Source: Candidatus Fermentibacteraceae bacterium (lineage in GTDB: Bacteria > Fermentibacterota > Fermentibacteria > Fermentibacterales > JCC-6). From it: a stretch of 64,000 nt of DNA. Under the pieces are notes generated by a model. That model saw only the letters and a program-made list of their open reading frames with translations. It did not search any database and was not told where the DNA came from. This document shows positions 31,820 through 31,903 of this stretch, piece by piece. The stretch spans positions 12,528-76,527 of the forward strand of contig JAMOUX010000011.1 in NCBI GenBank assembly GCA_027067855.1. Reading direction: 5' to 3'. The stretch's first letter is position 1. Every line of letters begins with the position of its first letter. The translations under genes were made by a program, and so were the position numbers.

Positions 31820-31903
31820 GGCATTTTGATTAATATTAATTCAGCTTTTGTATATATTATGCACGTTACTGCCCGTGGCATTGCATTTTGCAATATGTAG
31901 TTC

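Follow-up and report, generated by a model that had tools for sequence, protein, structure and literature searches.

A conserved TTGCA-N3-TGCAA palindrome upstream of a sigma54-type pilin promoter in Fermentibacteria is a probable enhancer site for the neighbouring PilR-like activator

The pilin island of this Candidatus Fermentibacteraceae genome contains two intergenic regions that share a 12-mer, ATTGCAAAATGC, and in one of them the 12-mer is part of an inverted repeat. This raises the question of what the repeat is for, which protein would recognize it, and whether both copies belong to the same regulatory arrangement. We examined the question in the window, that is, the whole 64-kb stretch of DNA analysed here, and in the corresponding loci of related genomes. 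The minus-strand features around the inverted repeat, in the order in which they are encoded, are as follows.

38610-40796, minus strand: pilB
37539-38609, minus strand: pilT
36315-37523, minus strand: pilC
34625-36286, minus strand: PilS-like sensor histidine kinase (PAS, HisKA and HATPase_c by domain models), presumed partner of the bEBP
33241-34662, minus strand: PilR-like bEBP with Response_reg, Sigma54_activat (AAA+) and HTH_8 domains (Pfam), the proposed binder
31904-33244, minus strand: orfB, lying between pilR and pilin 2 and encoding a conserved membrane protein whose N-terminus is weakly TMEM260-like
31880-31894, no strand assigned: site 2, ATTGCA-TTT-TGCAAT, a perfect palindrome with 6-bp arms, the predicted UAS of pilin 2
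31803-31818, minus strand: sigma54-type -24/-12 element of pilin 2, TGGCATGAATCATGCT (GG-N10-GC), conserved in all related pilin promoters as TGG(C/T)A-N7-TGC(T/A)
31373-31753, minus strand: pilin 2, a type IV pilin (MKKGFTLIELM...; Pfam N_methyl, NCBIfam pilin models and orthologues), the presumed regulated gene
31323-31350, minus strand: intrinsic-terminator-like hairpin and T-run after pilin 2 (terminator scan)

Pilin 2 has its own ribosome-binding site and ATG, a predicted transcription start near 31792 and a 5' UTR of ~39 nt, and its orthologues in Aegiribacteria loci are 59-67% identical. Because a terminator-like hairpin and T-run follow the gene, it is probably monocistronic. The upstream gene orfB is missing from Fermentibacteraceae-type loci, where the palindrome directly follows pilR.

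Direct reading of site 2 gives TTGCATTTTGCAA, with the core TTGCA-N3-TGCAA at 31881-31893. The inverted repeat described in the initial annotation is thus present, and its arms extend to 6 bp. Its centre lies 71 nt from the -24 G of TGGCATGAATCATGCT, in agreement with the ~70 nt first given, approximately at -95 relative to the predicted transcription start, and 10 nt separate the orfB stop codon from the site. The 13-mer is unique within the window even when one mismatch is allowed. The 12-mer occurs there in exactly two copies at up to one mismatch, at 28423-28434 on the plus strand and at 31883-31894 on the minus strand; both copies had been recognized, the second with coordinates (31886-31897) that are 3 nt too high. 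Their recurrence had been considered unlikely by chance. Taken alone, the shared 12-mer is weak evidence, because 1074 canonical 12-mers repeat in the 64-kb window; two intergenic regions of matched size (248 and 150 nt) and composition had a 12-mer in common in only 17 of 5000 simulations. The weight of the argument comes from comparison between genomes.

Searching species-representative genomes with the bEBP as query returned 25 loci from Candidatus Fermentibacteria/Aegiribacteria/Hyd24-12 (55-76% identity) and 55 loci from other phyla. Fifteen Fermentibacteria pilR loci contain the exact TTGCA-N3-TGCAA sequence, always as a single copy, and 0 of the 65 other loci of the scan contain it; a search of 625 kb of non-Fermentibacteria pilR loci found none. 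Two further Fermentibacteria loci (L007 and L008) carry one-mismatch versions at the same position; the remaining Fermentibacteria loci end short of the pilin gene. The phylogenetic footprint proposed in the initial annotation therefore comes out clearly: the element is present at the same place wherever a related locus extends as far as the pilin gene, namely in 17 genome loci and 7 metagenome contigs. In the genome loci, 134-182 nt separate the palindrome from the start codon (ATG) of the pilin gene that follows pilS-pilR. The seven contigs, which came from a metagenome scan with pilin 1, have the same site upstream of TGGCA-N7-TGCT. Inspection of the promoter alignments reveals that the palindrome and the sigma54 element are the sole invariant blocks.

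The distance between these two blocks is tight and clade-specific. Across relatives and metagenome contigs the palindrome lies 71-107 nt upstream of the -24 G, and the overall spacing, measured from the centre, falls into classes of 71-72, 80-82, 87, 94-97 and 103-107 nt. The window and six Fermentibacteraceae-type loci share 71-72 nt; the distance is 82 nt in L019, 95-97 nt in eight Aegiribacteria-type loci, and 103-107 nt in L013 and L008. Among 26 sites, the G, the C and the TGCAA of the arms are each found in 26 of 26 and the left-arm A in 25 of 26, while the first spacer position is free, the spacer as a whole is 79% A/T, and the promoter-proximal flank favours TGCAATA(C/G).

A weight matrix built from 17 orthologous sites, none of them from the window, was then run on the window. 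Site 2 ranks first at 22.6 bits and the plus-strand copy, site 1, second at 13.0 bits, and the next independent match scores 8.6 bits. A 9.2-bit match at 31885-31903 was considered as a secondary PilR site and discarded, as it merely reflects the self-palindromic TTGCAA arm. On 248 kb of Fermentibacteria loci, every match above 13 bits is one of these pilin sites.

Several further features of the related loci were seen alongside the palindrome. In the Aegiribacteria-type loci L001-L007, TATAGTA is kept over the predicted sigma54 start, at columns about 186-198 of alignment A1 and some 10-20 nt past the -12, and creates an overlapping sigma70-like TTGGCA-N17-TATAGT; the window lacks TATAGTA over the start because of a 3-nt deletion. 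Aegiribacteria-type promoters also keep a block, TAATAATAT, midway between UAS and promoter, and a weakly conserved ATGCATAATG-like element ~24 nt upstream was considered as a secondary PilR site. Fermentibacteraceae-type promoters (L016-L019, L061 and L068; alignment A2) keep CTTGAC(G/A)C immediately 5' of the TGGCA of the -24. Two overlapping sites, TTGCACCGTGCAAAATGCAAT, occur at 8844-8869 of L013, and L086 has a perfect palindrome at 47-65, inside the 3' end of the pilR coding sequence, plus a half-site at -144. A second tandem pilin gene without a palindrome upstream is found in L017, L018, L061 and L068 (about 8000-8050) and in L015 (7472); in L015 the palindrome-less pilin comes first and has its own TGGCA-N7-TGC element. 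In L089 and L090, TTGCA-N3-TGCAG occurs only ~15 nt upstream of GG-N10-GC, a geometry unlike the Fermentibacteria UAS, and the bEBP of L090 ends in GIDASTLYRKLARY.

An inverted repeat immediately 3' of an upstream open reading frame could also work by forming a hairpin in RNA or DNA, for instance one at which orfB or pilR transcripts are terminated or processed. Its placement would suit such a role, since in all loci it lies roughly 4-20 nt past a stop codon, and in six loci it is the bEBP stop codon that the palindrome follows at this distance. Nonetheless, the potential stem is 6 bp and AU-rich with a 3-nt loop and no U-run, its folding energy (-6.8 kcal/mol, z = -0.13) is not better than that of shuffled sequences, and it is missing from the output of the terminator scan. 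The arms are invariant without compensatory changes while the loop varies, which is the opposite of what a constraint on structure alone would leave. This combination of invariant arms, free spacer and no compensatory changes is the pattern of a sequence-specific protein site and not of a hairpin. Folding, terminator scan and absence of covariation led us to reject the hairpin or terminator role, which we regard as highly improbable.

Which protein, then, would bind the palindrome? A bEBP with GAFTGA and HTH_8 is encoded upstream and is syntenic in all related loci. In the window this is the PilR-like protein at 33241-34662, which has a Walker A motif (GESGSGK), GAFTGA at residue 230 and a Fis-type HTH_8 with the recognition helix NESTLYRKL. 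Invariant arms, a free spacer without compensatory changes, a fixed promoter distance and bEBP synteny together make the element look like an NtrC-family enhancer (UAS). Such enhancers are expected ~70-150 bp upstream of the -24/-12 element, and site 2 (71 nt), site 1 (94 nt) and the relatives (71-107 nt) all fall within this range; dyad symmetry and conservation across orthologous promoters are likewise found, site 1 having one good arm only; and the gene at 33241-34662 supplies a cognate activator with a GAFTGA AAA+ domain and a DNA-binding domain. That the organism has a sigma54 (rpoN) is presumed from the conserved GG-N10-GC elements and the GAFTGA activator. Since the palindrome is kept at the same place across relatives, it is most likely the docking site of the neighbouring PilR-like activator. 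We consider it probable, with good confidence, that the sigma54-dependent pilin 2 promoter has its UAS in the palindrome at 31880-31894 and that a dimer of the PilR-like bEBP is the most likely occupant; site 1 would represent a lower-affinity version at pilin 1. The candidate role proposed in the initial annotation for both copies is thus borne out for site 2, where placement in relatives and the adjacent conserved bEBP agree, and is weaker for site 1, a half-degenerate copy.

The steps of activation, like the identity of the binder, we infer from the positions and domains just described and by analogy with NtrC-family activators. The PilS-like kinase would phosphorylate the receiver domain of the PilR-like protein, which is encoded 1.3 kb upstream of the palindrome. 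PilR dimers, bound by their Fis-type HTH at TTGCA-N3-TGCAA, would assemble into an active AAA+ oligomer, and the AT-rich 58-bp spacer would loop to let the GAFTGA loops touch sigma54-RNA polymerase sitting at the -24/-12 element. ATP hydrolysis would then lead to opening of the pilin 2 promoter. The stretch between UAS and promoter is AT-rich in both window promoters (35% and 39% GC) and ranges from 22 to 59% GC in relatives, versus ~60% for the genome, which may ease looping. Two observations fit the enhancer reading less well. Many bEBPs use two or more sites, and here there is only one strong site per promoter, with secondary PilR sites weak or ambiguous; moreover, the differences between the spacing classes do not always amount to whole helical turns.

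The single strong dyad per promoter, given that bEBPs often need several, could instead mean that the palindrome is recognized by some other regulator whose gene lies elsewhere, perhaps a repressor or a dimeric helix-turn-helix protein of another kind, with PilR acting via other sequences; known Pseudomonas PilR sites also look unlike the palindrome. We judge this unlikely. Sigma54 promoters depend on a bEBP site, and the alignments of both clades show no further conserved upstream block. The palindrome lies at distances usual for a UAS and is found strictly together with this bEBP lineage, and its sequence matches exactly the operator of a second NtrC-family bEBP with a similar recognition helix. 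Binding by the PilR-like bEBP remains our preferred reading of site 2.

The second copy of the 12-mer lies in a different setting, between pilin 1 and a divergent operon, with the following features.

29444-31318, plus strand: PMT_2/LIC_10190-like membrane protein, second gene of the orfA operon
28530-29447, plus strand: orfA, first gene of the two-gene operon, with a TTG start at 28530
28421-28439, no strand assigned: site 1, a half-degenerate copy reading CCGCA-TTT-TGCAATAC on the pilin-sense strand, second-best weight-matrix match
28323-28338, minus strand: sigma54-like -24/-12 element of pilin 1, AGGCATGTTTTATGCA, in the GGCATG-N4-ATGC form common to the pilin 2 promoter
27925-28281, minus strand: pilin 1, a paralogue of pilin 2 with 52% identity (sequence comparison)

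Site 1 lies inside the 248-bp intergenic region 28282-28529, which has 46% GC versus about 60% for the window, and is 96 nt before the orfA TTG, so that the initial description of a plus-strand copy ~95 nt upstream of this start in an AT-rich region is accurate. Its promoter-proximal arm TGCAATAC is perfect and its distal arm is degenerate (CCGCA). The centre (28430) precedes the pilin 1 -24 G by 94 nt, which places it in the same class as the 95-97 nt of Aegiribacteria. Natural primary sites of the same polarity, with a degenerate distal arm (AAGCA-N3-TGCAATAC), exist in L086 and L088.

The target assigned to site 1 at the outset was the divergent secreted-protein/paralog-B operon, here the orfA-glycosyltransferase-like operon (28530-31318), which points away from pilin 1 and towards pilin 2. 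Apart from the 96 nt to the TTG, this assignment could draw on a weak sigma70-like match, TTGTCA-16-TATCTT (9/12; 28459-28486, plus strand), which lies ~25 nt downstream of site 1 and ~45 nt before the TTG and is the only promoter candidate for the operon. A bEBP does not normally activate sigma70 promoters, however, and no sigma54 (GG-N10-GC) element for the operon was found on the plus strand. Orthologous orfA operons (L003, L005, L006, L007 and L009) have no weight-matrix match upstream; since relatives keep the operon but not the motif ahead of it, site 1 probably does not act on it. The orfA assignment is therefore improbable and did not survive the comparison: the geometry fits pilin 1, and site 1, if functional at all, belongs with pilin 1, given that the orfA operon has no sigma54 element and its orthologues no site.

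Whether site 1 is functional is a closer call. The conserved operator could be site 2 alone, with site 1 a chance partial match in an AT-rich intergenic region and the shared 12-mer a coincidence, and we regard this as a real possibility that nonetheless falls short of an even chance. In its favour, 12-mers recur widely in the window, as noted above, a score at the level of site 1 (at least 13 bits) arises in ~20% of simulated 64-kb windows, and one arm is degenerate. No close orthologue of pilin 1 was found in the related loci or in the metagenome scan, where identity reached 53% at most, so site 1 is not amenable to footprinting and there is no orthologous promoter for a conservation comparison. 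The upstream regions of pilin 1 and pilin 2 show no alignment beyond short motifs and their spacing differs, for which reasons we also set aside the idea that site 1 is a relic of a duplicated promoter. Against coincidence, there are just two pilin promoter regions and the match is in one of them (p about 0.003-0.012), with a score of at least 13 bits in ~1.2% of simulated 399-nt intergenic sequences. It sits 94 nt from a GG-N10-GC element, as in the 95-97 nt class, and it keeps the extended proximal arm TGCAATAC with the polarity of the half-degenerate sites of L086 and L088. On balance, the prospects that site 1 is a working, weaker site for pilin 1 are about even; it would then act as a lower-affinity site at an equivalent distance upstream of the paralogous sigma54-like promoter.

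Recurrent AATCAAA(A/G)T tracts had been suggested as IHF-type bending sites upstream of both sigma54 elements. The tracts do occur, three times in all and exclusively in the two pilin promoter regions. As IHF sites they were rejected: none fits the consensus WATCAANNNNTTR, whose only two matches in the window (38592 and 51711) are both outside the pilin promoters, and the promoter alignments show no conservation of the tracts in relatives.

The proteins at 24495-26264 (minus strand) and 29444-31318 (plus strand) are paralogous PMT_2/LIC_10190-like membrane proteins with 34% identity; together with the weakly TMEM260-like protein at 31904-33244 (minus strand) they flank the two pilin genes and are kept beside pilin in relatives, and the three are a possible set for pilin O-glycosylation. 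Also encoded in the window are DprA (DNA processing, natural transformation; 22382-23425), an additional PilT-like ATPase (12318-13427) and a SprA-like protein of 1866 aa that has a domain related to type IX secretion/gliding (42362-47962).

Taken as a cis-element and its predicted regulator, the palindrome and the PilR-like bEBP provide a concrete candidate pair for the control of type IV pilin expression in Fermentibacteria (Hyd24-12), an uncultured phylum that is abundant in anaerobic digesters. One genome paper on this phylum notes pilus genes only as gene lists and does not mention their regulation (PMC5030696). Because the site is short, invariant and single-copy per locus, it can be used to mark the major pilin promoter in metagenome bins and to probe binding in heterologous tests. 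The element is most likely a phylum-wide example of a well-known class, a bEBP enhancer at a sigma54 pilin promoter under control of the PilS-PilR type. The regulatory logic is already well known from other phyla, and what is new is the Fermentibacteria element.

PilS-PilR control of a sigma54-dependent pilA promoter is established in Pseudomonas aeruginosa, Myxococcus, Geobacter and Xanthomonas (PMC6058289, PMC7170775). The window shares with these systems the gene order pilB-pilT-pilC-pilS-pilR-pilin, a two-component kinase with an NtrC-family regulator, and GG-N10-GC before the major pilin; it differs in the extra membrane-protein gene orfB between pilR and the pilin. The recognition helices differ as well. 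All Fermentibacteria PilR proteins have GIN[E/P/A]STL[Y/H]R[K/R]L in the C-terminal domain alignment, with GVN in the window protein, in contrast to IDAFRYRM in Geobacter, ERSFWYRL in Pseudomonas and RNALRYRL in Bryobacteraceae, and no Fermentibacteria-type helix was found among the non-Fermentibacteria pilR-type homologues of the 55 other loci. The hallmarks of P. aeruginosa PilR sites, as cited in PMC6058289, include a NifA-like TGT-N11-AGA and tandem GTCT or C/GTGTC elements. Neither pilin promoter region contains these hallmarks, save for one antisense GTCT, and neither contains NifA or NtrC motifs.

A mechanistic template is given by the NtrC enhancer TGCACC-N5-GGTGCA at glnAp2, a dyad UAS that a response-regulator bEBP binds via a Fis-type HTH. 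There, too, the dyad lies ~100 bp upstream of a sigma54 promoter. The glnAp2 dyad spans 17 bp versus 13 bp here, with a different sequence and half-site spacing, and the window bEBP scores below the NtrC model cutoffs. Every NCBIfam model scored below its cutoff, such that the bEBP could not be assigned to any named equivalog. For the NF041946 LuxO model the score is 353.8 bits against a cutoff of 800, which rules out a LuxO orthologue; higher scores come from the AtoC and NtrC models, and these too miss their cutoffs.

In DNA sequence the palindrome equals the operator of Vibrio LuxO, TTGCAW3TGCAA, which lies at -89 to -120 from the transcription starts of the qrr genes (PMC11443567). At these sigma54-dependent sRNA promoters the core is identical to the Fermentibacteria palindrome, and site 2, TTGCA-TTT-TGCAA, fits including the W3. 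The 13-bp dyad geometry is the same, with LuxO sites at -89 to -120 versus Fermentibacteria centres at about -95 to -131, and the activators belong to the same class (receiver, AAA+ and HTH_8). Authentic LuxO sequences read DVSPSTIYRKL in the recognition region of the C-terminal domain alignment, so that the helix, SPSTIYRKL, is similar to the NESTLYRKL of the window protein. Unlike the LuxO circuit, the target here is a type IV pilin gene and not a qrr sRNA, and the phylum is unrelated; the spacer in Fermentibacteria relatives is not always W3 (79% W); and LuxO promoters often have two sites, versus one strong site in the Fermentibacteria pilin promoter.

We regard the identity with the LuxO operator, combined with a LuxO-like recognition helix, as the one mildly surprising feature of the system. 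The correlation between helix and operator is suggestive, but common descent confounds it: the carriers are all relatives of one another, and LuxO provides the sole comparison from outside. It offers a natural test, on a small scale, of what sets the enhancer specificity of NtrC-family DNA-binding domains. Tentatively, the helix xST[L/I][Y/H]RKL and the operator TTGCA-N3-TGCAA common to the Fermentibacteria PilR lineage and Vibrio LuxO might reflect a transferable helix-to-DNA rule for Fis-type HTH_8 domains, although we hold this to be doubtful. If the helix does determine the operator, enhancer sites of uncharacterised sigma54 activators would be predictable from protein sequence, and the Fermentibacteria palindrome would represent a phylum-wide, one-site pilin switch in an uncultured lineage, built on the same operator that LuxO uses at the qrr promoters of Vibrio.
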